64,000 nt of DNA from Acidimicrobiales bacterium (GCA_963664235.1 OY760933.1:1043920-1107919); one strand, 5' to 3'. Shown: positions 9,631 through 23,565, counted from the first letter of the stretch. The notes: generated by a model not told the origin, from the letters alone. Numbers and translations: made by a program.

Positions 9631-11127
9631 CTACGAGCCCGAGCCGTCGCCGAGGTCCTCCTGCCACCGGAGCACCGGGCGTCGAGCCGCCGTGGCCTCG
9701 TCGAGGCGCCCTATGGGTGCGCTCCAGGGGGCGCCGTGCAGGGTCTCGGGGTCGCTGCGGGCCTCGGCGGCAATGGCGATCATGGCCTCCGCCAGGGCCT
9801 CGATGGCCTCGGGGGGCTCGGTCTCGGTCGGCTCGATCATCAGCGCTTCCTCGACGATCAGGGGGAAGTAGACCGTCGGCGGGTGGAATCCGTGGTCGAT
9901 GAGGCGCTTGGCGATGTCATAGGTGGGCACACCGTGGCTGCGGCGCTGCCGCGTGCCCGAGAAGACGACCTCGTGCAGTACGGGCCGGTCGTACGGCAGG
10001 TCGTAGTGGTCGCCCATCAGCACGCGCAGGTAGTTAGCGTTGAGCACGGCCTGACCCGAGACGGCTCGCAGGCCCTCGAGGCCCAGGGCGCGCATGTAGG
10101 CGTAGGCACGAATCAGGACACCCACGTTGCCGTTGAATTGCTGGAGGCGTCCGATGCTGCGCTCCGGCTCGATGAAGCGCACGACGCCGTCGTCGCACTC
10201 GGTGACGACCGGGGTCGGGAGGTACGGCGCCAACTCCTCGCTGCAGCAGACGGGTCCCGCGCCCGGGCCGCCGCCGCCGTGGGGCGTGCTGAAACTCTTG
10301 TGCAGGTTCAGGTGGGCCACGTCGAATCCCAGGTCGCCGTAGCGCACGCGCCCCATGATGGCGTTGAGGTTGGCCCCGTCTCCGTAGAGGTAGGCGCCGG
10401 CCCGGTGGATCACACCGGCCACCTCCTCGATGCCGCGCTCCCACAGGCCCAGCGTGTTCGGCACGGTGACCATGACGGCGGCCACCGAGGCGTCCAACTC
10501 CCTTTCGATGGTTGCCCGGTCCAACGAACCGTCGGCGCCGGTGGGGATCTGGGTCACGGCGAAGCCGGCCATGGCGGCGGTCGCCGGGTTCGTGCCGTGC
10601 GCCGAATCCGGAACGAGGATCCTGCGCCGCTGCGACAGCTCGCCGCGATCCTCCAGGGCGCGCGTGATCATCAACACGCCGGCGAGCTCACCCTGCGCCC
10701 CGGCGGCCGGCGCCAGGCTCACCGCTCCCAGACCGGTGATCTCGCCCAAGCCGCGCTGCAATTCGAGCAGCGTCTGAAGGGTGCCTTGGACCTCCTCCGG
10801 TGGCGCCTGGGGATGCGCGCCCGCCAATCCGGGAAGCGACGCCACGAGGTCGTCGACCTTCGGGTTGTACTTCATGGTGCAGGAACCCAGCGGGTAGGTG
10901 CCGGAGTCGATGCCGTAGTTCCGCGCCGAGAGTTCCGTGTAGTAACGCACCAGTTCGCCCTGGCTCAGTTCCGGCAACCGCACCGAGTCCCGCAGCAGAT
11001 GCGCATCGGGCAGCGGCGCCGGTTCGCCGTCCCAGCGGGGAACGTCGACCGCCCGCCGGCCGGGCACCCCCCTGTCAAAACTCAAGCGGGCACCGAAGTC
11101 CTCGCTGTTGGGCCCTGGCGCGCTCAC
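9631..11127 (-). CDS. gcvPB: Glycine dehydrogenase (decarboxylating) subunit 2
   Basis: YPLGSCTMKYNP, SAHGTNPATA, HLNLHKSFSTPHGGGGPG, GFHPPTVYFPL; GTG overlaps the gcvPA stop. Confidence 0.96.
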   Translation of the reverse strand: MSAPGPNSEDFGARLSFDRGVPGRRAVDVPRWDGEPAPLPDAHLLRDSVRLPELSQGELVRYYTELSARNYGIDSGTYPLGSCTMKYNPKVDDLVASLPGLAGAHPQAPPEEVQGTLQTLLELQRGLGEITGLGAVSLAPAAGAQGELAGVLMITRALEDRGELSQRRRILVPDSAHGTNPATAAMAGFAVTQIPTGADGSLDRATIERELDASVAAVMVTVPNTLGLWERGIEEVAGVIHRAGAYLYGDGANLNAIMGRVRYGDLGFDVAHLNLHKSFSTPHGGGGPGAGPVCCSEELAPYLPTPVVTECDDGVVRFIEPERSIGRLQQFNGNVGVLIRAYAYMRALGLEGLRAVSGQAVLNANYLRVLMGDHYDLPYDRPVLHEVVFSGTRQRRSHGVPTYDIAKRLIDHGFHPPTVYFPLIVEEALMIEPTETEPPEAIEALAEAMIAIAAEARSDPETLHGAPWSAPIGRLDEATAARRPVLRWQEDLGDGSGS

Positions 11128-12497
11128 GCCGCACCCCCGATCTCCGCCAGCGCCTCGACGAGCGCGTCGGTGTGTTCCTGGAGCGTGGCCTCGGTCACCG
11201 AGAACAGCAGGGCCTGGCGCGCCTCGGGCTCGGGTCTGCCCGAGACGTCGAAGCCGGGACCGATGCCGCGCGCCCTGAGTGCGGAGGCCAATTCTGCGGC
11301 CGGCATCGGGCCGCGTACCAGGAACTCCGAGAACCACGGACCGCGCTCGGGGGTCTCGAAGCCGTCCAGTGCGGCGATGCGCCGGGCGGCGTCATGAGCG
11401 CGCTGGTAGCTCAACTCGGCGGCCTCGCGGAGCCCTCGGGGGCCCAGAGCCTGCAGGGTGATCGTGAAGGCGAGCGCGATCAGTGACTGCGCAGTGGAGA
11501 CGTTCGAGGTGGCCCGCTCGCGCCGGATGAACTGCTCGCGCGCCTGCAGGGTGAGCACGTAGCCGGTGCGCGGTTCAGCGCCGCCGGGGGGCGCTTGCAG
11601 CTCCCGCGTGCGCCCGACGATGCGGCCGGGCATCTGCCGAAGGAACGTCGACCGGGCTGCGAACAGTCCGAGCGAGGGCCCGCCGAACTGCGGCGGCCCC
11701 GCCAGATCTCGCCCCTCGCCGGTGACGATGTCGGCGCCCGCGTCGCCCGGTGCACGAAGCATCCCCAGAGCGAAGGGGTCGGCGACGGTCACCAGGAGCA
11801 CGCCGTCGGCGTGCACCCTCTCCGCAATCGGCTCGAGGTCCACGATGGCTCCCAGGAAGTCCGGCTGCTGGACGACGAGACAGGCATGATCGGCACTCAC
11901 CGCCTCCGGGGTCTGCAGCACGTCCACCCGCAACCCCGCGCCGCGGGCGTAGGTACGCACGACGCCGGTGGTTCCGGGGTGGATCGGCTCGAGCAGTGCC
12001 ACCGCGCTGCGCTTCGTGACGCGAGACGCCAGCAGGCATGCCTCGGCCGTGGCGCTGGCCCCGTCGTACAGGCCGGTGTTGGACACGTCCAGGCCGCTGA
12101 GTTCGCACACCACCGACTGGTACTCGAACGCCGTCTGCAGCGTCCCCTGGCTGATCTCCGGCTGGTACGGCGTGTAGGCGGTGACGAACTCGGAGCGGCT
12201 GGTGAGGTGCGAGGTGATGGCGGGGATGGCGTGCCGGTACGCCCCGGCGCCGAGGAAGTCCGGGCGGCCGGCGACGGCGTTGGCGGCGGCCCGCTCGGCC
12301 AGCAACGCGATCAACTCCGGCTCCGTGAGGGCCGGGGGAAGCTGGATCGTCGGATCCAGCACGGCCGCCGGCAGATCGGCGAACAGCGCGTCGATGTCGG
12401 CGACACCGACCCGCTCGAGCATCCGGGCGCGGTCGGCCTCGGTGGCCGGGATATACGGATGTGGGGAGCCGCCGGAGGGCGAGGACACGGCCGTCAA
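11124..12497 (-). CDS. gcvPA: Glycine dehydrogenase (decarboxylating) subunit 1
   Basis: FLGAGAYRH, EFVTAYTPYQPEISQG, LYDGASA, REQFIRRERATSN. Confidence 0.96.
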   Translation of the reverse strand: MTAVSSPSGGSPHPYIPATEADRARMLERVGVADIDALFADLPAAVLDPTIQLPPALTEPELIALLAERAAANAVAGRPDFLGAGAYRHAIPAITSHLTSRSEFVTAYTPYQPEISQGTLQTAFEYQSVVCELSGLDVSNTGLYDGASATAEACLLASRVTKRSAVALLEPIHPGTTGVVRTYARGAGLRVDVLQTPEAVSADHACLVVQQPDFLGAIVDLEPIAERVHADGVLLVTVADPFALGMLRAPGDAGADIVTGEGRDLAGPPQFGGPSLGLFAARSTFLRQMPGRIVGRTRELQAPPGGAEPRTGYVLTLQAREQFIRRERATSNVSTAQSLIALAFTITLQALGPRGLREAAELSYQRAHDAARRIAALDGFETPERGPWFSEFLVRGPMPAAELASALRARGIGPGFDVSGRPEPEARQALLFSVTEATLQEHTDALVEALAEIGGAA

Positions 12498-12898
12498 CTC
12501 GCCTCGACCTCCGCCCGGTACCCGGCGGCGTCGAGCATTCCCTCCAGTTCGGCGCCCTCAGAGATACGCACGCGGATCAGCCACCCCTCGCCATAGGGCG
12601 ACTCGTTGACGAGTTCCGGGGCGTCGGCGAGCTCGCCGTTGGCGGCGACCACCTCGCCGCTGACCGGGGCGTAGAACTCCGCGACGGTCTTGGTGGACTC
12701 GATCTCGCCACACACCTCACCGGCGGTGACCGGGGTCCCCGCGGCAGGAAGATCGAGGTACACCACATCGCCGAGCTGATCCTGGGCAAAGTCCGTGATG
12801 CCCACGGTGGCCTCATCGGGGTTGTCGCCGTCGCGGCGCAACCACTCGTGGCTGGGCGTGTAGAGGAGGTCACCGGGGGTGTTGTTGTCGGTCATCAC
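12494..12898 (-). CDS. gcvH: Glycine cleavage system H protein
   Basis: SHEW, VGITDFAQDQLGDVVY, IESTKTV lipoyl-lysine motif, NESPYGEGWL. Confidence 0.97.
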   Translation of the reverse strand: MMTDNNTPGDLLYTPSHEWLRRDGDNPDEATVGITDFAQDQLGDVVYLDLPAAGTPVTAGEVCGEIESTKTVAEFYAPVSGEVVAANGELADAPELVNESPYGEGWLIRVRISEGAELEGMLDAAGYRAEVEAS

Positions 12899-14010
12899 GT
12901 ATTCCTCACTTTCCGGTAGAACGGGCGGCGCACGACCTCCACCGGGAGAGCGCGGCCGCGGACATCGACTTCGAGAGTGACACCGGGGCTCGCAAGCTCG
13001 GCCGGAAGGTAAGCCATGCCGATGCCGAGGCGCAGGCTGGGGCTGAAGGTCCCGCTGGTGAGTCGCGCCACCGCCTCGCCGGCGGGCTCGTGCACGGCGA
13101 ACCCCGCTCTCGGCACGCCGCGGCCGCGAGCCATCAGATGGCAGAGCCGTCGGCTGCGAGCCCGGGCCTTCGCCTCCAAGAGCGCTTCCCGTCCGGTGAA
13201 CGGCGCTCCGTCGTCGAGGCTCACCGCGAATCCCAGCCCGGCCTCGTAGGGGTGCGTGGTGGCGTCGATGTCATTGCCGTGAAGCGGCAGCGCCGCCTCG
13301 AGTCGCAACGTGTCGCGTGCTCCGAGGCCTACGGGCGTGGCCCCCCCGCCCACCAGCGCGTCCCACAGCGCCCCGGCACCGCCGGCGCCGACGATGCACT
13401 CGCCGCCGTCTTCGCCCGTGTAGCCGGTCCGAGCGAAGAGCACGGGTGAGGCGTCCCAATCAAGTTCCACGCAGTCCCGCGGTGCCAGCGCTGCCAGGCC
13501 CTCACCGAGGACGGCGCTGAGCAGGCCGATCGCCTCGGGTCCCTGGACGGCGAGCATCACCGTGTCCTGGGTCACCTCGGCTGCGTCGTCGCCGGCGACG
13601 GACCGCAACCGCGCGAAGTCCTCGCCGGCATTGGCCGCGTTGTGGACGATCAGCCAGCGTTCGTCGGGCAGGCGGTAAATGAAGACGTCGTCGTCGATAC
13701 CGCCGGACTCGTTGCAGTAGAGCGAGTAGTGCGCCCTACCCACCTCCAGGGTGTTCACGTCGAAGGTCGTCACCGAGCGCAGCAGCGACGCCGCCCGCGG
13801 TCCGCGCAGCCAGACCCGTCCCAGGTGCGACACGTCGAAGACACCCACCCGCTCCCGCACGGCCTCGTGCTCGCGAACCGTGCCGGCGTACTGCAGCGGC
13901 ATCTCCCAGCCGGCGAAGGGCGCAAAGCGGGAGCCGGCCGCCTCATGGCGATCACGCAGTGTCAGCGTGTGCAGCCCGCCGTCACTGCCGGGCCCTTGGC
14001 TCTCGCCCAC
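12895..14010 (-). CDS. gcvT: Glycine cleavage system aminomethyltransferase T
   Basis: FAGWEMPLQY, FDVSHLG, ARTGYTGEDG, GLGARDTLRLEA, TSGTFSPSL. Confidence 0.96.
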   Translation of the reverse strand: MGESQGPGSDGGLHTLTLRDRHEAAGSRFAPFAGWEMPLQYAGTVREHEAVRERVGVFDVSHLGRVWLRGPRAASLLRSVTTFDVNTLEVGRAHYSLYCNESGGIDDDVFIYRLPDERWLIVHNAANAGEDFARLRSVAGDDAAEVTQDTVMLAVQGPEAIGLLSAVLGEGLAALAPRDCVELDWDASPVLFARTGYTGEDGGECIVGAGGAGALWDALVGGGATPVGLGARDTLRLEAALPLHGNDIDATTHPYEAGLGFAVSLDDGAPFTGREALLEAKARARSRRLCHLMARGRGVPRAGFAVHEPAGEAVARLTSGTFSPSLRLGIGMAYLPAELASPGVTLEVDVRGRALPVEVVRRPFYRKVRNT

Positions 14011-15192: not shown

Positions 15193-15999
15193 ATGAGTGC
15201 AACGGGCGCGGACATGTTCCGCCTGGACGGCAAAGTGGCGCTGGTAACCGGCGGATCCGGCGGCATCGGCAAGGCGCTGGGAATCGGCCTGGGGTTGGCC
15301 GGCGCCCGCCTGGCGCTCACCGGCCGCTCGCAGGAGAAACTCGACGCCAACGCCGCCGCAGCGAAGGCTGCCGGCTGTGACGACGTCGAGACGTTCGGCG
15401 ACTTCGACCTGACCCATCCGGGCCGGCCCGCGGCGCTCGCGGACACGGTCGCAGAGCGGATGGGAGGCGTCGACATCCTCGTCAATGTGGCAGGTCTCAA
15501 CCGTCGCAAGCCCGCCCTCGACTTCGCCGAAGAGGACTGGGACGCCGTCATGAACCCCAACCTGAAGGCCGTGTTCTTCCTGTCGCGGGAGGTGGCTCGA
15601 CTGTGGGTCGAGGGCGGTCGGGACGCCGAGAGCGACGGTAGGGGCAAGATCATCAACATCGCCAGCCTGGCGGGGGCGATCGGGATCGCCGAGATCGCCC
15701 CGTACGGCGCCTCGAAGCTGGGTGTGGTGGCACTCACGCGGTCCCTGGGCGTCGAGTGGGCCCGCGAGGCGATCTGCGTGAACTGCATCGCGCCGGGCTA
15801 CCACGAGACGCCTATGACCATCGCCCAGGGGATCTTCGACAACCCGAAGATCGGGCCGTGGGTACGCAGCCGCATCCCCATGGGGCGACTCGGAACGACC
15901 GAGGACCTGGTCGGGCCGGCGATCTACCTGGCCTCGGCGGCCAGCGACTACATGACCGGCCAGACCGTCTTCGTGGACGGCGGCTTCGAGGCGGGCTAG
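15193..15999 (+). CDS. SDR oxidoreductase (KduD/gluconate 5-dehydrogenase-like)
   Basis: TGGSGGIG, YGASK, VNCIAPG, YMTGQTVFVDGG; GGAG RBS. Confidence 0.9.
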   Translation: MSATGADMFRLDGKVALVTGGSGGIGKALGIGLGLAGARLALTGRSQEKLDANAAAAKAAGCDDVETFGDFDLTHPGRPAALADTVAERMGGVDILVNVAGLNRRKPALDFAEEDWDAVMNPNLKAVFFLSREVARLWVEGGRDAESDGRGKIINIASLAGAIGIAEIAPYGASKLGVVALTRSLGVEWAREAICVNCIAPGYHETPMTIAQGIFDNPKIGPWVRSRIPMGRLGTTEDLVGPAIYLASAASDYMTGQTVFVDGGFEAG

Positions 16000-16053
16000 C
16001 GGGACCCGCCTCAAGAGCCCACCAGGCCGACGAGCCGGTGATTCGCGACGCGC

Positions 16054-16089
16054 CTCAGGTGAGGTAGCGCTGGCGCCACTCGCCGGAGC
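16054..16089. repeat. 36-bp direct repeat, left copy (orphan duplicate of the htpX 3' end; att-like)
   Basis: CTCAGGTGAGGTAGCGCTGGCGCCACTCGCCGGAGC, identical to 23609-23644. Confidence 0.95.
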
Positions 16090-17597
16090 TAGTCCGTGCT
16101 GCTAGTCCAAGGGCCGCGGGGTGCGGCCGGATCGAAACGCACCTTCTGGACATCAAGTGCATCAAGTCCTTCCTGACCGGTTGTTCGAAGCCAGGCGTCC
16201 TGCCCGTACCACATCGGTTCCAAGATCGCGCTGAGTTCAGGCGTCAGTCGTTGCTCCGCATGAAGACGCACCGCCTCCCGTGGCAGATCGCCGAGTGCAC
16301 GTAGCGCCAGCAACCGCGCCTGCCCGGCTATCGCGCAGGCGTCGAGCAAACTGTCGATGCAACGGTGTCGCGCCAGTAGGCAAGCAGCCAACTCGGCGCG
16401 CTCCACGTCCTCGGCCAAGAGCCACTCGGTCAGTGTCTCCTGCACGCTATGGGGCAGTCCCTCGATGGCGGCGATGGCGTGAAGTGCAACGATCTCGTCG
16501 CTGTCGAGTCCGAGTCGGATCAGCAGGTCGGGTCGATGCAAACCGCCTTGGCCGAGCCCCCAGGCTGCTGCCGCTCGTACTTCCGAAGGAAGGCTTGACG
16601 AATCGGCGACTCGGGCTAGTTCATTGGCCGCAGCGCCGTCGCGCAACTCCGTCAACGCGAACACGGCCTCCATTCGCTGTTCCGTGTCGACATCGTCGCC
16701 GATGGCGCCGTCAGCTATCGCGGGAGCCCATGACGCGGCATCGAGTCGGGCGAGGTTCGCTCGGGCTTCGAGCCGGGTTCGCCAGTCCTCCGCTGTGTCC
16801 GCCTCGATGGCGAGGAGCCCGTTGACCAAGTCCCGGCGTCCAGAGATTCCTACCGCCCGGACAGCGGCGTAACGATCCACCGGATCGTTGGACCGCAGGT
16901 CCGCCGCAAAGTTCCAGGAATCACCATCACAAGCGAGAGATCCCACTGGCTGTACGACTCCAGCCACGATCGTCTCGCCGGCGGCGAACTCGTCGCCGGG
17001 AATCAGGTAGACGTGCCTTGGCGGCGTCCAGTTCCGCCAATGCCAGTACCGGCGCTGCACACCGAAGTCATCGTGGTAGCAAATCCGGCCTTCGGCATCG
17101 AGCCCGAGGAACCTGCCGCGGCGTGACGGCACCCAGCATGGCCAGGTCAGCGTCGATTCGGAGCCTTCCGACGCCGCCTTCGGCGCCGACCGCCGGGCTT
17201 GGCTGATACTGGCCCTCAGCGCCGCTCTGGAGAAGCAGACGGGCGCGCCTGCGTATGGAGGGAAGTGGCTCAGATCAGTACGTATGAACGCGAAGAGGTC
17301 GCCGTCTCGCATTCCGCCCGCGTCCCACTCGCGGCCGGGCGCGTCAGAGTGCGACAACACGACCCCCAGCTTGGACTTGGCGCGCGCTTCGACGCGCAAG
17401 CCGCAGCGGACGCACAGAAGGTCGGGCAGGCGGAGGCGCTTGACCTTCGTCTGCCACACCTTGTTGGCCATGGCGTAGCGCTCGAGTTCGACCATCCGAT
17501 GGCCGTGCTCGTCACTCAGATCAAAGGCCACGGCGGCTGCGCCAACAGCGCCCATCGAGACGAATCGGGCGAAGTCGGCATCCTCCTTGAAGCCCAT
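16089..17597 (-). CDS. Putative PD-(D/E)xK-type restriction endonuclease fused to C-terminal HEAT-like repeats
   Basis: N-terminal LRLPDLLCVRCGLRVEARAK (PD..E-x-x-x-K variant with CxxC); C-terminal repeats DRYAAVRAVG, RMEAVFALTE, EVRAAAAWGLG, ARLLALRALG; divergent from a DNA methyltransferase; ATG 17597 has TACGCT 6 nt upstream. Confidence 0.6.
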   Translation of the reverse strand: MGFKEDADFARFVSMGAVGAAAVAFDLSDEHGHRMVELERYAMANKVWQTKVKRLRLPDLLCVRCGLRVEARAKSKLGVVLSHSDAPGREWDAGGMRDGDLFAFIRTDLSHFPPYAGAPVCFSRAALRASISQARRSAPKAASEGSESTLTWPCWVPSRRGRFLGLDAEGRICYHDDFGVQRRYWHWRNWTPPRHVYLIPGDEFAAGETIVAGVVQPVGSLACDGDSWNFAADLRSNDPVDRYAAVRAVGISGRRDLVNGLLAIEADTAEDWRTRLEARANLARLDAASWAPAIADGAIGDDVDTEQRMEAVFALTELRDGAAANELARVADSSSLPSEVRAAAAWGLGQGGLHRPDLLIRLGLDSDEIVALHAIAAIEGLPHSVQETLTEWLLAEDVERAELAACLLARHRCIDSLLDACAIAGQARLLALRALGDLPREAVRLHAEQRLTPELSAILEPMWYGQDAWLRTTGQEGLDALDVQKVRFDPAAPRGPWTSSTD

Positions 17598-17622
17598 CTT
17601 GAGAGCGTAGGGTTGACATTCG

Positions 17623-19437
17623 ATGACAGCTACGGGCCACGCTGCCTCAGTCGAGAGCGCTGCACGACGACCGGGCGCGGAAGCGCCGACGTCAGACGTC
17701 ACCGGGAACGGGGAATCCGAGTTGGCGGGCACGATCTCAGTCCGCCGCAGCGACCCCGTCTACATGGCCCACGCGTATCTCACGAAGGTACCGGTGGCCG
17801 CGATCACGCCGTTCATCGAGGCGTTCACAAAGCCGGGCGATGTAGTCCTCGATCCGTTCGCCGGTTCCGGGATGACCGGTGTGGCCGCCGCTGTCACTGG
17901 CCGGCGCGCTCAACTCTTCGACATATCTGTGCTGGGCCGTCATATCGGCGCCAACTACGTCAACCTGGTCGACCCTGACATGATGCACCATCACGGCGAA
18001 GCTGTGTTGGAGAACGCCGCCCGACGAGTCGGAAATGCGTACGGAGCACGTTGCGAGGCGTGCGGTTCTGCCGCGGAACTCGTCAAGACCGTGTGGTCGG
18101 CGGTCCTCGAGTGCCAAGCCTGCAGCGAGGGGGTTAATTACTACCGGGCGTTGGAGGCCGCAGGGTGGGCAAAGCAGCGAATGACGTGCCCAAGCTGCGG
18201 CACTCGCTTCGGTGCCCGCTGTCGACGACTAGCTGAAGAGCCCGTACTCGACTCGATCCGCTGCCTCTGCTCGCGGACTCAGCTCGAACAGGACCACAGG
18301 TCACCGCTGGAGTTTCCCGATCCCGCCGGCCTGACCTGGCCTGACGTGCCGATAGGTGAATCGCGCCAGATGTACGTTGCGTCCGCCCTCGGGCGCAACG
18401 GTCTGACAACAACAGGGGCGTTCTACTCCCCTCGGAACCTGTGCGCGCTCGCCGCGCTGCGAGACGCCATCGAGGCCGTCTCCGAGCCCCAGGTGCGGGC
18501 GAAGTTGCTCTTCGCGTTTACCGCCGTGCTGACACGTGCGAGCAAGCGGTACCAGTGGTCGCGGCAGCGCCCGCTCAATGCCGCCAACGCCAACTACTAC
18601 GTCGCCCCAGTGTTCTACGAGTGGAACGTGTTCGATCTGTTCGACCGCAAGGTTGCGGCCGCGATTCGCTCCGACGAATGGATCAGGCAGCACCAGAACG
18701 GTGATTCCTCGACAGGCGCCCGCTGCCCGGACGTGGTGTACGACCTAGCCAGCGCTGACAAGCTCCCGCTGGAAGACGACTCGGTGGACTACGTCTTCAC
18801 CGATCCCCCATTCGGCGCCAACATCTTCTATTCCGACATGAATCTGTTCCAAGAGGCTTGGCTCTCCGAGGTGACGGATCCTGCCGCCGAGGCGGTGGTA
18901 GACCGCGTGGATACTGGCGCCCCTCGCACCGCCGAGCGTTACGAACGGATGCTTGCCGGCGCACTACGAGAATGTCGACGTGTCGTCAAGCCTGGCGGGC
19001 ATATCACACTGCTGTTCGGCAATAGTTCCGGCGCTATGTGGCAGCTGCTTCAGCGAGCGTTGACCCGTGCTGGGTTGGAGCCGGTGCCAGAGTTGATTGC
19101 CGTTCTCGACAAGGGCCAGCGCTCCGTTAAGGGTCTCGCCTCCGGATTCGAGAACGTGTCGACGCTGGATCTGATGCTGACTCTTAGGCCGGCTTCAGAC
19201 GGGCACGGCTTGCTCTTGACACCGCCGCCCGGTGTTGTGGACGACTTCGTCGTTGACCTGCTAGCGAGAGATCCCGAACCAACGCCCAGCCGGCTCTACC
19301 TGGCCCTGCTGCGGCATGGTCTCACTCAGGGTTGGGACCTCAGCCACCTCGATCTGCAGCGTGTCACAGCACTCCTCAGATCCACCGATGTAGCGGTCGA
19401 TCGCCAAAGCGCACGCGTACTCTCCGCCAACTGCTAA
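17623..19437 (+). CDS. Amino (N6-A/N4-C) DNA methyltransferase with Zn-ribbon insert
   Basis: HAYLTKVP, motif I VLDPFAGSGMTG, Cys pairs CEAC/CQAC/CPSC, motif IV DYVFTDPPF, ECRRVVKPGG; exact start uncertain. Confidence 0.88.
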   Translation: MTATGHAASVESAARRPGAEAPTSDVTGNGESELAGTISVRRSDPVYMAHAYLTKVPVAAITPFIEAFTKPGDVVLDPFAGSGMTGVAAAVTGRRAQLFDISVLGRHIGANYVNLVDPDMMHHHGEAVLENAARRVGNAYGARCEACGSAAELVKTVWSAVLECQACSEGVNYYRALEAAGWAKQRMTCPSCGTRFGARCRRLAEEPVLDSIRCLCSRTQLEQDHRSPLEFPDPAGLTWPDVPIGESRQMYVASALGRNGLTTTGAFYSPRNLCALAALRDAIEAVSEPQVRAKLLFAFTAVLTRASKRYQWSRQRPLNAANANYYVAPVFYEWNVFDLFDRKVAAAIRSDEWIRQHQNGDSSTGARCPDVVYDLASADKLPLEDDSVDYVFTDPPFGANIFYSDMNLFQEAWLSEVTDPAAEAVVDRVDTGAPRTAERYERMLAGALRECRRVVKPGGHITLLFGNSSGAMWQLLQRALTRAGLEPVPELIAVLDKGQRSVKGLASGFENVSTLDLMLTLRPASDGHGLLLTPPPGVVDDFVVDLLARDPEPTPSRLYLALLRHGLTQGWDLSHLDLQRVTALLRSTDVAVDRQSARVLSANC

Positions 19438-19629
19438 CAGCGGCTGCTTGGGTGAGCAGTCGCGCGCGCCCGTCAGGTCCGGTCAGGCTCGGCCTGGCCG
19501 GGGACACCCTCCTCCGACGCTCGCCGCAGTCGTTCCTGGCCGCAGGCTTGGAATAGACAGACAAACTTCGTTGTTGTAGTTGCATCATTGGCATTCCGGC
19601 CACCTCAAGAACTGCCCGGAAGGGACGCA

Positions 19630-20955
19630 ATGGCAGAACATGAACAGATACCCAGCAGCGCCCCTGCAGTCGAACCGCGCGGTCCGGTCTTCATCTCGTA
19701 CCGTCATAGCGACGCCAGAGCGCTAGCGGAATCCCTCGCGTGGGCGCTTCGGGCAGCCGGCGTGCCTGTCTGGCACGACGTGACCGACCTTCCTCCTGGC
19801 GACACCGATCGCCGCCTTGGCGAGGCGCTCGATTCCGGGCTGTCCGGCGCCGTGGTCATCGTCACACCCGAGATCGGGCAGTCTCAGGTAATTCGCGATC
19901 TCGAGTTGCCACGTCTGCTGGACCTTGAGCAGGAGTCCGAGTTCACTCTTGCGGTCGGATCAACGGTTGAAGCAGGTGACAGCACCGGGAGTCTCGACTA
20001 CTCGGCACCTGACCAGCTTCTCGGTCAGCCACCCGGGACGCTGCAACGCCTTAACCAGAGACGAGTGGCAGACGCCGAAGAGCGAGCGGAACTGGCAAAC
20101 GCTCTGGCCAGACAGCGTCTTGCGCGGCTTCGGACCGAGATCCAAGCCGCGGGTGGAGTGCTCGTGATCGATATCCAGACTCGCGTTCCCCCGGTAGCGA
20201 CAGCCCAGGACGGCGATCTGGTTCTGCGGCTACGACCACCTGTGGACGGTGAGCGCCGCCCGCACCGCGGAGGCCTCGAGAACTTGCACCGGTTTCTCGG
20301 TGAACTACCGCTGCTGATTGCCACGTCAGGCGCCCGTGCCATACGAGTGCGCGGAGGGGCACACCTGTCGGTTGCCTGTGCCATCGGCGCAGCACTCCCC
20401 ACCACGCTTGTGGGCACCGTCGAGGTTGTCGATACGGCAGGCCACACGTGGGTGCTGTCCGGACAGGCGCCATCACCCACCCGCGAGCGGCTCTGCGGGG
20501 CTGTCACACCCCCTGGATACAACTGTGGGCATGGTCCAGTGCTCGCCTTCATCGACCTGCTGCCGCAGCAAAGCGCCGCTGCGTTCGACGCGATGCTCCG
20601 GTCAGGCCGAGCCGCCTTCGCGGGCGTTCTCCACTTGCGCCCACGCGGTGCTGGCCTGCTCAATCCTGACGACGCCGAGATGCTCGTGGGTGAACTCAAC
20701 GCAGAAATCCGCGCGCTCGCAAGTACGCATCACACGACGGAGGTCCATCTGCTCCTGCGGTGCCCGTACCCGGTTGCGGTTCTTCTCGGCCGCACCCTCA
20801 ACACCCTCACGATCAATCTCTACGAATGGGAGGACACCCCTGATGGCGACTCCGGGCCTGATCCACGGTACGTCCCGAGCATCGTGTTGCGCTCGGGAAG
20901 TGGGGGCTCACCAATCGACCGCATCACAGCTCCACCGTTGAGCTGCCGATCTTGA
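19630..20955 (+). CDS. CBASS effector, TIR-SAVED (NADase plus cyclic-oligonucleotide sensor)
   Basis: TIR: VFISYRHSD, GVPVWHDVTDLPPG, IRDLELP (catalytic Glu); SAVED: GGAHLSVACAIG, EVHLLLRCPYPVAVLLG, INLYEW. Confidence 0.9.
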   Translation: MAEHEQIPSSAPAVEPRGPVFISYRHSDARALAESLAWALRAAGVPVWHDVTDLPPGDTDRRLGEALDSGLSGAVVIVTPEIGQSQVIRDLELPRLLDLEQESEFTLAVGSTVEAGDSTGSLDYSAPDQLLGQPPGTLQRLNQRRVADAEERAELANALARQRLARLRTEIQAAGGVLVIDIQTRVPPVATAQDGDLVLRLRPPVDGERRPHRGGLENLHRFLGELPLLIATSGARAIRVRGGAHLSVACAIGAALPTTLVGTVEVVDTAGHTWVLSGQAPSPTRERLCGAVTPPGYNCGHGPVLAFIDLLPQQSAAAFDAMLRSGRAAFAGVLHLRPRGAGLLNPDDAEMLVGELNAEIRALASTHHTTEVHLLLRCPYPVAVLLGRTLNTLTINLYEWEDTPDGDSGPDPRYVPSIVLRSGSGGSPIDRITAPPLSCRS

Positions 20956-20968
20956 AAGGAATGTGTTA

Positions 20969-21991
20969 ATGGAGACGCTGCACACGCAGTTCAGCCAGGC
21001 CCTGTCGAACATCGAGATCAGCGACGCCAGGCGCCAGCGCGCGATTGCTGCGCATACAGAGATCCAAGACTCGCTCTCCAGCGACAGGATTTTGTGCGAC
21101 TGGGGAATCAGTACACGGCTCATCGGCTCCTACAGCCGGCACACCGCAATTCACCCTGGCAAGGACGTCGACGTGTTCGCACGCCTCGAACGCCTCGACG
21201 CGGGAGCCAACCCTGAAGCCGTCTATCAGCGCGTGTGGGATCTGCTCTTTGCGCGGTATGGCAGTCGAGCCACGCCGCAGGCACGCAGCATCAAGGTCGA
21301 GTTCCCGAGCGGGGCCGGAATAGACACCAGCTTTGCTGTCGACGCCGTGCCCGCCGTCCGCTCTGGCAGCCGATGGGCGATCCCTGCCACGGACAGGAGC
21401 TTGTGGGCCGACAGTCCGAGCCGTTGGGTCGTGACCGATCCTGAGCGGTTCGGTGCGCTCTCAAGCGACCTGAGCACGGCGGCTTGGAGCCCCATCGTGC
21501 GGGGCCAGGATGCCTACAAGCCCGTGGTAAAACTGATGCGACAGGTACGCGAGACGCACCTGGGCGATCTAAGGCCCGGCGGCCTGTACGCCGAATTCGC
21601 CACCTACGACGTCTGGAACTCCAGGCTGGTTCGCGGTAGCGAGTGGTGCCAACTCCTCGCTGCGACGCTTGGTGCTGTGGCTTCTAGGTTCGAGGCCGCA
21701 CCAACGAAGCCGCTCGTGGATCCTGGGCTCGGCACGCCGGTTGACCCGGCACTCGACGCAGCCGTCTGGCTCTCAGCCGCCCAGACTTTCTTCAGGCTCG
21801 CCGATCTGGCTGCCGAGGCCCTGAACTTGGGAAAGTGCACGGCCGCAGCACGGTGGCGAGAGATCCTGGGAGAAAACTCGAGGGGGAAGGTCTTCCCTGT
21901 GCCACCCGGGTGTGACGCCAGAGGATTTGCCACGACAGGCATGGCCGGACTAGTCGCGGCTAGGCCGAGGGAGGCTCAAGGATTCGGATGA
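20969..21991 (+). CDS. CBASS cGAS/DncV-like nucleotidyltransferase (CD-NTase)
   Basis: LIGSYSRHTAIHPGKDVDVF, RSIKVEF, VDAVPA, TDP, KPVVKLMRQ, WREILG; C-terminus ...AQGFG. Confidence 0.92.
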   Translation: METLHTQFSQALSNIEISDARRQRAIAAHTEIQDSLSSDRILCDWGISTRLIGSYSRHTAIHPGKDVDVFARLERLDAGANPEAVYQRVWDLLFARYGSRATPQARSIKVEFPSGAGIDTSFAVDAVPAVRSGSRWAIPATDRSLWADSPSRWVVTDPERFGALSSDLSTAAWSPIVRGQDAYKPVVKLMRQVRETHLGDLRPGGLYAEFATYDVWNSRLVRGSEWCQLLAATLGAVASRFEAAPTKPLVDPGLGTPVDPALDAAVWLSAAQTFFRLADLAAEALNLGKCTAAARWREILGENSRGKVFPVPPGCDARGFATTGMAGLVAARPREAQGFG

Positions 21992-23565
21992 GCGAGTCGG
22001 CACCGGTCGACACCTTCGATCAAGCGTCACTTGAGTGCTTTATAGCGGAGTTGGTGGCGGCTGGATTCGAACCAGCGCCGGGAACCGGTAGGAGAATCTG
22101 GGTAGGACCCATTCATCCCGCTCTTGCGCCGCTCACCGACGCCCAAGAGATGCGCCTTTTGCTCCGAGACGGATGGCCTGTGGTCTTTCCCTACTTGTTC
22201 GCGGGGGGTCTGCTCACGAACCACCTCACGTCCGATGGATACGTGTGCCTCTGGCACGAAGGCGACAGCTCGGGGGAATGGGTCACGCTTAACGGCGTCC
22301 TTGATCGGCTCATCCAGTGGAGCAACAGTGCCAAGCATGGGTGGGATCCTGCTGGCCTCGCCCAGGACGCGCAACTCAACTTCCAGACGAAGCATGCAGC
22401 AGTCGCCACGTTTGACCTGGATGAACTACAACTTGGCCGCGCCGGGACGTGGGGATCGTTCCACGGCAGAGCGCACCACCCTCTGCACATCTCACTTCAT
22501 CCGGGCCGCCGACCTGACAATCAGGGACTCGACGGCCTGTGGATTCGTTCGACTGTCCTGGACGTGCCGCCGCGGAACCTGGCCGAGTTGAGACAGGTAC
22601 TCAATCGAGCCCAATTGCACGGTCTCGACCGGGCGCTCGACTCTCGCCGTAACGGCGGCGAGACGCTCCAGCCGAGCGGGTCGACTGATGTCATCCTGTT
22701 TGCGTGGGATCGAGAGGAACTTCGGCACGTGCTCGTCCTTGCCCTCGAAGGGACCGGCGCCGATACGACCGCGGTCGCCCTCCGACCCGGTCCCAGAGAC
22801 AGGAAGTCCCTCATGCTGCGAGCCGGACCCGATGCAACAGAACTTGCAGAACGGACGGTCGTCGTTCTCGGTTTGGGCGCACTCGGCGGTCATGTGTCGG
22901 TTGCATTGGCTGAGAGTGGCGTCACTCGACTCCAACTCGTTGACGGCGACCAGCTTCTGCCCGAGAACGCCGTTCGCCACGTGGCAGGCCAGCACGCGGT
23001 CGGGCACCCTAAGCCAGTCGTGGTGGCGGCGACCGTCGCCGATCACGCTCCGTGGACCGAGATCACCACGCTGGCAACTAACCCAATGTCTCCGGAGGCG
23101 CTCGGTCAGGCCATCACAGACGCTGATCTGGTTGTTGACGCTACGGGTGGCGGCGCAGCCACTCAGGCCATCTGCCTCAGCGCACTAGCTCAGGACAAGG
23201 CGGTTGTATCTGGCGCACTCTTCCGGGGTGGCGCCATCTCGCGAATACGGCGCCAAGGAACGCCTGGCGATACGCCCATTCTCGACCGGACACCGGCGCT
23301 CGGCTACCCGCTGATCCCATTTGGCGACGGCGATGACCTGATCCGGCCCGCGGTCGGCTGCTCTGGACCCGTGACGAACGCTCCACCAACGACAGTCCTA
23401 GCCGCGGCGGCACTAATCGCCGAGACGGCCATAGATGCCCTTACCGGCCGCTTGGCGCTACCGGACGAAATCATCGACGTCTACCGGGCTCTGCCCGACG
23501 AGCCGCCGTTCGACCGGATCGGGAGAGTGGCGCGGCGAGTACCAGAGGAACCCACTCTCGTCTGA
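21988..23565 (+). CDS. cap2: CBASS Cap2, E2-E1 (ThiF) ubiquitin-like conjugating enzyme
   Basis: E2: GWP..FP, NHLTSDGYVCLW; E1: VVLGLGALGG, VDGDQLLPENAVRH, LVVDATG, VGCSGP catalytic Cys; ATGA overlap with the CD-NTase. Confidence 0.88.
   Translation: MSESAPVDTFDQASLECFIAELVAAGFEPAPGTGRRIWVGPIHPALAPLTDAQEMRLLLRDGWPVVFPYLFAGGLLTNHLTSDGYVCLWHEGDSSGEWVTLNGVLDRLIQWSNSAKHGWDPAGLAQDAQLNFQTKHAAVATFDLDELQLGRAGTWGSFHGRAHHPLHISLHPGRRPDNQGLDGLWIRSTVLDVPPRNLAELRQVLNRAQLHGLDRALDSRRNGGETLQPSGSTDVILFAWDREELRHVLVLALEGTGADTTAVALRPGPRDRKSLMLRAGPDATELAERTVVVLGLGALGGHVSVALAESGVTRLQLVDGDQLLPENAVRHVAGQHAVGHPKPVVVAATVADHAPWTEITTLATNPMSPEALGQAITDADLVVDATGGGAATQAICLSALAQDKAVVSGALFRGGAISRIRRQGTPGDTPILDRTPALGYPLIPFGDGDDLIRPAVGCSGPVTNAPPTTVLAAAALIAETAIDALTGRLALPDEIIDVYRALPDEPPFDRIGRVARRVPEEPTLV

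Follow-up and report, generated by a model that had tools for sequence, protein, structure and literature searches.

The window analysed here is a stretch of 64,000 nucleotides from an Acidimicrobiales bacterium (GCA_963664235.1 OY760933.1:1043920-1107919), with a G+C content of ~70% and a lower-GC stretch at ~15-24 kb. Two divergent genes are the subject of this analysis. The first, protA (16089..17597, minus strand, stop codon included), encodes a protein of 502 amino acids (aa) with a nuclease-like domain, an SH3-like barrel and a HEAT solenoid. The second (17623..19437, plus strand) encodes a DNA amino-methyltransferase of 604 aa, of a permuted PF01555 type with a Zn-ribbon insert. An earlier note, made from the sequence alone, had described a 502-aa protein head-to-head with a 604-aa methyltransferase and proposed that the two form a restriction-like defence system. 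The coordinates hold: the start codons face apart, with 25 bp between them (17598..17622). The same spacing is found in four related loci (L001, L003, L005 and L046; related loci are numbered with L throughout).

A mechanical call of the protA open reading frame (ORF) runs over 16089..17732 (minus strand) and gives 547 aa from the first GTG; the 502-aa form starts from the ATG at 17597. We take this ATG as the start because the N-terminus is invariant across relatives. MGFKEDADF is invariant in the homologue alignment, and (M/V)GFKED(A/G)DF opens the protein in all 47 related loci in which the match begins at locus position 10001. The 547-aa reading was rejected: homologues lack its additional 45 residues, which overlap the start of the methyltransferase gene. 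Conservation is low over residues 1-37 of the methyltransferase (identity 0.31), so that the protein may really begin elsewhere, upstream of residue 38. A scan of 15900-19700 found no sigma-70-like promoters and no intrinsic terminators. The 25-bp spacer and the lack of such a promoter imply that each promoter lies inside the other gene, or that the transcripts are leaderless.

Because protA has many relatives, it is more than a chance ORF. We found 582 relatives at E<=1e-3 among 8000 scored candidates, and the N-terminal domain alone has matches in 298 representative clusters (50% identity). Existing protein names for these relatives are 'hypothetical' or 'HEAT repeat domain-containing'.

Linkage, co-inheritance and decay of the two genes

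One scan of species-representative genomes returned 57 loci, labelled mostly as Acidimicrobiia/Acidimicrobiales bins, with five from Dehalococcoidia, five from Streptomyces, one from Nonomuraea and one from Corynebacterium. The linkage on which the earlier proposal depended holds across these genomes: in 55 of 55 evaluable loci, a methyltransferase homologue lies divergently upstream of protA as an adjacent, separate gene. Two loci (L030 and L057) begin at a contig end inside protA and were left out of this count. After clustering of all ORFs, protA and the methyltransferase were the only families common to >50 loci, and the next real family occurred in 18.

The two genes are largely co-inherited, and their trees are congruent (43 rows). 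Among the strongly supported splits, 16 of 20 in the protA tree are found in the methyltransferase tree, and 18 of 23 conversely. Three pairs of splits are incompatible, all among close relatives. The pair is mobile and its composition is foreign. The G+C content at third codon positions (GC3) is 0.74 for protA and the methyltransferase, versus 0.886 +/- 0.03 for 15 host genes, and the spread across phyla is patchy. Four Dehalococcoidia (Chloroflexota) loci were included in the protA tree (L029, L036, L040 and L042), and they form one clade inside its Acidimicrobiia part. Such nesting points to transfer between phyla or to mis-binned contigs. A tblastn search with protA against 72,556 plasmids and 50,697 phage records gave no match.

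Decay of the pair is one-sided. protA is disrupted in 9 of 56 evaluable loci by a stop, frameshift, truncation, deletion or insertion sequence (IS), L048 having been left out because it ends at a contig edge. For the methyltransferase, all 55 loci show a single uninterrupted match with no stops and an intact TDPPF (Fisher's exact p = 0.0028). The lesions in protA comprise a stop plus a frameshift (L010), frameshifts (L015, L038 and L056), an internal stop at residue 295 (L018), truncations after residue 376 (L033) and after about residue 185 (L039), an IS with a DDE transposase inserted after residue 250 (L034) and a gene left in fragments only (L057). A restriction-modification pair is expected to lose its nuclease and keep its methylase, so this pattern supports such a reading, and it fits constitutive protA toxicity checked by methylation. 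The IS element that splits protA in L034 occupies 10750-12478 of that locus and encodes a DDE_Tnp_1_4 transposase (1.1e-48). L001 also has a DDE transposase ORF (11948-13630), directly downstream of protA.

Domains of protA and the nuclease question

We modelled protA with AlphaFold2 on 31 homologues (mean predicted local distance difference test score, pLDDT, 84.8; predicted template-modelling score, pTM, 0.80) and modelled residues 1-240 alone a second time (pLDDT 85.2). Residue conservation was counted in the window protein plus 89 full-length representatives of 50%-identity clusters (n = 90).

The N-terminal domain (aa 1-135; 17193..17597, minus strand) is a putative PD-(D/E)xK nuclease, judging from the model and a motif. 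It is basic (net charge +4, isoelectric point 9.2, family median) and is the best-conserved part of protA, with a mean pairwise identity of 0.47 that rises to 0.58 in the core (33-105). The motif reported in the earlier note, PDLLCVRCGLRVEARAK, is present at residues 58-74. It holds the candidate catalytic motif P58-D59...E70-x-R72-x-K74 (17376..17426, minus strand), picked out by conservation in the 90 sequences. D59, E70 and K74 are kept in 90 of 90, together with R40, W48, R56, S82, R89, W91, D100, E147 and W152; E39 and E37 are present in 88 and 86 sequences, respectively.

Two details of the motif need qualification. The earlier note spoke of a shifted Lys; K74 is indeed invariant, but the change is not simply a shift, for the canonical K of ExK falls at position 72, which is R in 73 sequences and K in 17. 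Homologues from Streptomyces, Corynebacterium and Nonomuraea have the canonical PD...ExK, and most of the others have PD...ExR-x-K. The window protein does contain the embedded CxxC, but not as a conserved metal site, for although C62 is present in 88 of 90 sequences, C65 is present in only 65. Thr replaces C65 in 21 of 90, and on this ground we rejected zinc binding by the CxxC within the nuclease motif.

The model of this domain starts with a long helix (3-31), a strand (35-37) and a low-confidence basic loop (40-54). Predicted strands follow at 60-62, 68-74, 79-84 and 101-108. D59 opens strand 60-62, and E70, position 72 and K74 lie on the adjacent strand 68-74. The conserved residues are therefore placed as in the PD-(D/E)xK superfamily, with D at a strand start and (D/E)xK-type residues on the next strand. 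This predicted strand order fits the PD-(D/E)xK core and supports the nuclease reading.

Structure and language-model comparisons point the same way below the usual thresholds. In a Foldseek search of the PDB with the N-terminal model, the best solved nuclease was the Holliday-junction resolvase Hjc (2wcw_A; rank 26, E 0.23, probability 0.60), with a template-modelling (TM) score of 0.44 normalised to the target. In BFVD, the same model matched small phage proteins of 130-190 aa (probability 0.96-0.99, E 0.013-0.05, TM up to 0.61), one of which carries the name 'Restriction endonuclease'. The language-model neighbours of the domain include PDDEXK_16, DpnI and PDDEXK_14 (0.87-0.90), and all the named neighbours among the matches listed are PD-(D/E)xK families. 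An hhalign comparison with rudiviral Hjc placed PD on PD and ExR on ExK in register. The rudivirus alignment used for it was narrow (34 sequences, 57-100% identical). A further hhalign comparison, of the N-terminal alignment with the single sequence of E. coli YraN, gave a probability of 0.3% on the wrong region.

With Hjc, protA shares a minimal PD-(D/E)xK layout, in which its D-to-E spacing is 11 residues. It differs in having an extra N-terminal helix of 30 residues and a conserved basic loop (K46-R56). Most protA members also carry Arg at the ExK Lys position, and the match to Hjc is not significant. The motif, the predicted topology and the language-model neighbours thus agree with the nuclease fold that the earlier note had expected, but no Foldseek or profile match is significant. 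From the motif, the topology and these sub-threshold structure and language-model matches, we consider it quite probable that the domain has a nuclease fold.

A predicted SH3-like beta-barrel follows (aa 146-232; 16902..17162, minus strand), identified by predicted strands and weak matches. Its strands are predicted at 147-152, 161-166, 172-176 and 181-184, and a short helix (186-189) comes next in the manner of SH3 domains. Foldseek with the N-terminal model aligned 65-85 columns to RNA polymerase beta-subunit chains (probability 0.87-0.99), and we take these matches to fall on the barrel. Pfam adds weak SH3/KOW-type matches (DUF4314, SH3-C_UBE2O, BPL_C and KOW). Mean pairwise identity in the barrel is 0.29, with E147 and W152 invariant.

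The remaining part of protA is an acidic HEAT/PBS-lyase-like alpha-solenoid (aa 233-490; 16128..16901, minus strand), as the earlier note had recognised. A family profile matches alphaRep HEAT proteins in the PDB at 9.1e-26 and Foldseek gives 4.6e-07. Residues 233-490 contain tandem repeats that match HEAT profiles, and 14 helices are predicted in 239-483. For the window protein alone, Pfam returns HEAT_2 and nothing else, at 25.8 bits, just below the 27.7 cut-off; PADLOC and NCBIfam return nothing. Foldseek with the full protA model returned HEAT and armadillo proteins only. The HEAT part is the most variable domain (mean pairwise identity 0.27). The window protein has a net charge of -18 in this part; across the family the median charge is -12 (range -47 to +4) and the isoelectric point 4.95. 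Of the two roles that the earlier note had proposed for the HEAT domain, control or targeting of the nuclease, this acidity argues against DNA binding or targeting. Searches of Pfam, NCBIfam and PADLOC found no helicase or ATPase domain in protA.

The methyltransferase and its relatives

The methyltransferase has the motifs I and IV of an amino-methyltransferase. HAYLTKVP (aa 50-57) and the S-adenosylmethionine-binding motif I DPFAGSG (aa 77-83) span 17770..17871 (plus strand) and are invariant in the alignments, including one of 56 sequences. The catalytic motif IV, TDPPFG (aa 393-398; 18799..18816, plus strand), is invariant in 56 of 56 sequences and is intact also at loci with a broken protA. 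Between the two motifs lies a Cys-rich insert (18052..18270, plus strand). The three CxxC pairs that the earlier note placed here are present (C144/C147, C164/C167 and C189/C192), but it missed a fourth conserved pair, C214/C216. Each of the eight Cys is conserved in at least 98% of the 56 sequences, which suggests two Zn(Cys)4 sites.

Pfam N6_N4_Mtase (PF01555) matches the protein at 1e-19 (71.8 bits versus a cut-off of 26.7). The match is split in two, and residues 50-101 align with the end of the profile (positions 160-211 of 221), which makes the enzyme a circular permutant. Its motifs do not follow the beta-class order (IV...X-I): HxYxTKxP and motif I (aa 50-83) come first, then the insert, then motif IV (393-398), an order that we take to be alpha-like. 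The best PDB matches are CcrM and M.RsrI, in the motif I region only, where the protein aligns to 'HPTQKP...DPFFGVGTTG' of CcrM. The DPPF motif suggests N6-adenine as the modified base, with N4-cytosine as the alternative.

Among defence models, PADLOC matches the enzyme to MTase_II (PDLC03312, 1.3e-97) and to PglXI of type 3 bacteriophage exclusion (BREX-3; 3.3e-75), and NCBIfam DUF1156_antiphage matches weakly (1.2e-05). The enzyme is 29.8% identical to one encoded between brxF and pglZ on a Roseicitreum plasmid, in an annotated BREX-3 operon. The sequence relationship to the PglXI/DUF1156-type Zn-ribbon methylases is clear. The window enzyme differs from PglXI in its length (604 aa versus about 920-960 aa) and in its single nuclease-like partner. 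Nor does the locus resemble BREX-3 otherwise, as no BrxC, PglZ, BrxHII or BrxF lies nearby. The pair's neighbours in the window are a short-chain dehydrogenase/reductase (SDR) gene, a defence operon described below and an M48 peptidase gene, and no further gene is common across loci.

Related methylases occur with other partners. In excerpts of PMC1874659, COG1743 methyltransferases that neighbour Hjc-like nuclease-helicase proteins are described as putative Mod subunits, and excerpts of PMC7641849 describe an operon of COG1743, DUF499, SWI2/SNF2 and a nuclease; the window enzyme appears to belong to COG1743. On Arthrobacter-group plasmids, a locus (L059; NC_015146.1 154232-157845) contains two tandem methyltransferases of this family with 37% identity to the window enzyme. 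They are flanked by a small helix-turn-helix gene upstream and by two genes downstream, one hypothetical and one for an AAA ATPase. This locus may represent a different effector set for the same methylase type.

Defence context and interpretation

In the window, a type II operon of the cyclic-oligonucleotide-based anti-phage signalling system (CBASS) lies downstream of the methyltransferase and abuts the pair. It encodes a TIR-SAVED effector (19588-20955; PADLOC 3.4e-136), a CD-NTase (20963-21991; 5.8e-100) and a Cap2 E1-E2 fusion (21988-23565; 1.9e-152). GC3 is 0.67-0.74 across all five genes of this island. No Cap3/JAB protease ORF follows the operon; the next gene, 45 bp on and on the other strand, encodes the M48 peptidase. 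Upstream of the island, the high-GC3 housekeeping genes include one for a glycine-cleavage T protein (12895-14010; GCV_T, 5.2e-79), a landmark of the host backbone. The window (16089-23565), L003, L005 and L046 have the pair plus CBASS in the same chromosomal slot, from the SDR gene to the M48 (HtpX-like) peptidase gene, and L001 and L004 have the pair there but no CBASS. The slot is a defence hotspot with an insertion/deletion polymorphism.

We also scanned with PADLOC 105 neighbouring ORFs from 12 loci, picked for their varied contexts; two further picks were left out. For instance, in a Dehalococcoidia bin (L029, 291-7455) the pair's methyltransferase adjoins DISARM genes, namely DrmA (7.7e-205), DrmB (7.6e-76) and DrmC (3.5e-22), with a C5-cytosine methylase. 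Other neighbours are DRT and SoFic (L021), PDC-S01 (L018), PDC-S27 (L047), type I R-like helicases (L006 and L050) and a mad2-like methylase (L040). The earlier note had called the pair uncharacterised and defence-related. No PADLOC or NCBIfam model matches protA, and its neighbours include defence systems.

We favour the reading that the two genes form a mobile restriction-modification module whose nuclease has an architecture not described before, and consider it fairly likely from what sequences and models suggest. The restriction-like system of the earlier note is partly supported, by the dedicated pairing, the congruent trees, the foreign composition, the defence context and the one-sided decay, but the nuclease fold on which it turns lacks a significant match. 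In such a module, the methyltransferase would mark host DNA at a specific motif, with the two-zinc insert as its likely target-recognition region. protA would be the restriction partner, its basic N-terminal domain acting as a minimal PD-(D/E)xK nuclease with E39, D59, E70, K/R72 and K74 as candidate catalytic residues. This nuclease would cut DNA without the mark, using Mg2+ and no nucleoside triphosphate (NTP); an NTP would not be needed because no ATPase or helicase domain is present. The SH3-like barrel may help to hold the DNA. The acidic HEAT solenoid would be a protein-protein scaffold, for self-association or for gating of the nuclease, and not a reader of DNA.

This arrangement has much in common with orthodox type II restriction-modification, which has the same two adjacent genes, an amino-methyltransferase with motifs I and IV and a PD...ExK-type partner. 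Both lack an NTPase, are mobile, and lose the nuclease partner while the methyltransferase is kept. The differences lie in protA, which carries an SH3-like barrel and an acidic HEAT solenoid of ~260 aa, matches no restriction-enzyme model in PADLOC, Pfam or NCBIfam, and has a core that is highly conserved across phyla.

Several observations weigh against this reading. The N-terminal domain shows no statistically significant match to a known nuclease: Foldseek gave none at E<=0.001 in the PDB, the best in BFVD being 0.013, and its top-ranked PDB matches (E 0.066 and above) are not nucleases. The hhalign comparison with rudiviral Hjc reached a probability of only 0.85% (E 0.065), and a PDB sequence-profile search with the N-terminal alignment gave nothing below E 0.078. 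Neither Pfam, NCBIfam, PADLOC nor PHROGs assigns a nuclease family to protA. Pfam nuclease families were found in none of 31 N-terminal segments and none of 45 short representatives, and the PHROGs scan gave only a weak 'tail assembly chaperone' match, on the basic loop. Arg stands in place of Lys at the canonical ExK position in the window protein and in most of its relatives, and the core is more conserved than is usual in restriction enzymes. Of the nine disruptions, four (L010, L015, L038 and L056) involve frameshifts in metagenome assemblies that could be sequencing errors; the nonsense codon, truncations, deletion and IS insertion are less likely to be errors. Finally, 3 of the 12 scanned loci (L017, L027 and L051) have no PADLOC neighbour, and in L007 and L009 the matches to 'mad3', SspA and DndA probably reflect housekeeping ATPases or desulfurases.

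One alternative is that protA has no specificity of its own and that its HEAT solenoid docks on a Mod-like, site-reading methyltransferase, in a helicase-free complex resembling type III restriction or a minimal BREX-3. The methyltransferase is closest to types from multi-protein systems, as seen in its PglXI match and its 29.8% identity to the BREX-3 operon enzyme, and the COG1743 methylases in the excerpts of PMC1874659 and PMC7641849 have nuclease partners, if the window enzyme is rightly placed in that group. An acidic solenoid suits protein binding, and the nuclease domain is small (135 aa). However, the conserved module includes no translocase or ATPase, and no Res-like SF2 helicase/ATPase of the type III kind was found in protA or the module. 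No fusion of the methyltransferase to protA occurs among 150 listed representatives, all of <=524 aa, and its absence among proteins of 880-2510 aa is weak evidence in the same direction. A complex prediction with methyltransferase residues 38-530 and full protA scored 0.00, which speaks neither for nor against binding. We regard such a guided nuclease as unlikely.

A bolder variant, to which we give a similarly low probability, is a new class of NTP-independent restriction. Here the acidic HEAT solenoid would shut a minimal Hjc-like nuclease by autoinhibition or DNA mimicry. The PglXI-like methyltransferase would be the sole DNA reader, and the nuclease would be freed only once this enzyme meets an unmodified site or a phage factor binds the solenoid. 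If true, the pair would be related to BREX-3 or type III systems as a minimal form with two genes and no motor protein.

It is also conceivable that protA is not a nuclease and that its N-terminal domain only binds DNA or reads a methyl mark, as part of a regulatory or epigenetic module or as a Dcm-Vsr-like repair helper. The absence of a significant nuclease match by sequence or structure, the Arg at the canonical Lys position in most members, and the dispensability of protA in 9 of 56 loci beside an always intact methyltransferase would all suit this explanation. Yet the invariance of D59, E70 and K74 and the near-invariance of E39 are hard to explain without catalysis, and the foreign composition, the defence-island neighbours and the patchy cross-phylum spread also count against it, as does the finding that the named language-model neighbours among the matches listed are all nuclease families. 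We therefore rate it as quite improbable.

A last alternative, which we consider highly unlikely, is that the HEAT solenoid binds a phage protein and so frees the nuclease, with the methyltransferase only shielding host DNA. In its favour, the HEAT part is the most variable domain and is acidic, and the full-length pTM of 0.80 suggests a fixed domain arrangement. DSR2 (PMC11263360) likewise fuses an effector domain (SIR2) to a long HEAT solenoid that senses a phage protein in a defence context; it has a different effector and no methyltransferase partner. Against this alternative, an effector gated by a sensor should have no need of its own methyltransferase, yet one is present in 55 of 55 loci, and the one-sided decay fits constitutive toxicity checked by methylation.

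Restriction-modification is a known kind of system, and new families of restriction enzymes are common; the methyltransferase may already be listed as putative in REBASE. The new element is the fixed nuclease-SH3-HEAT layout, the nuclease part being putative, bound to a PglXI-like methylase. We judge this novelty from Pfam, NCBIfam, PADLOC and PHROGs, none of which has a model for the N-terminal domain, and from the literature: the portions returned by full-text searches on HEAT repeats with restriction, methyltransferase, nuclease, anti-phage and Acidimicrobiia contained no paper describing a pair of a HEAT-repeat nuclease and a methyltransferase.

If protA is a restriction enzyme, it represents a widespread family of 298 clusters with a domain layout unreported for restriction enzymes in the literature searched, spread over Acidimicrobiia and Dehalococcoidia bins, Streptomyces, Nonomuraea and Corynebacterium. 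The pair could then show how methylases of the PglXI type come to serve with different effectors, and could reveal a role for a HEAT solenoid in DNA-targeting defence. The pair may also hinder the transfer of DNA into those strains of Streptomyces in which it occurs. It would also add an unannotated system to the defence inventories of Acidimicrobiia, the group that dominates among the related loci.

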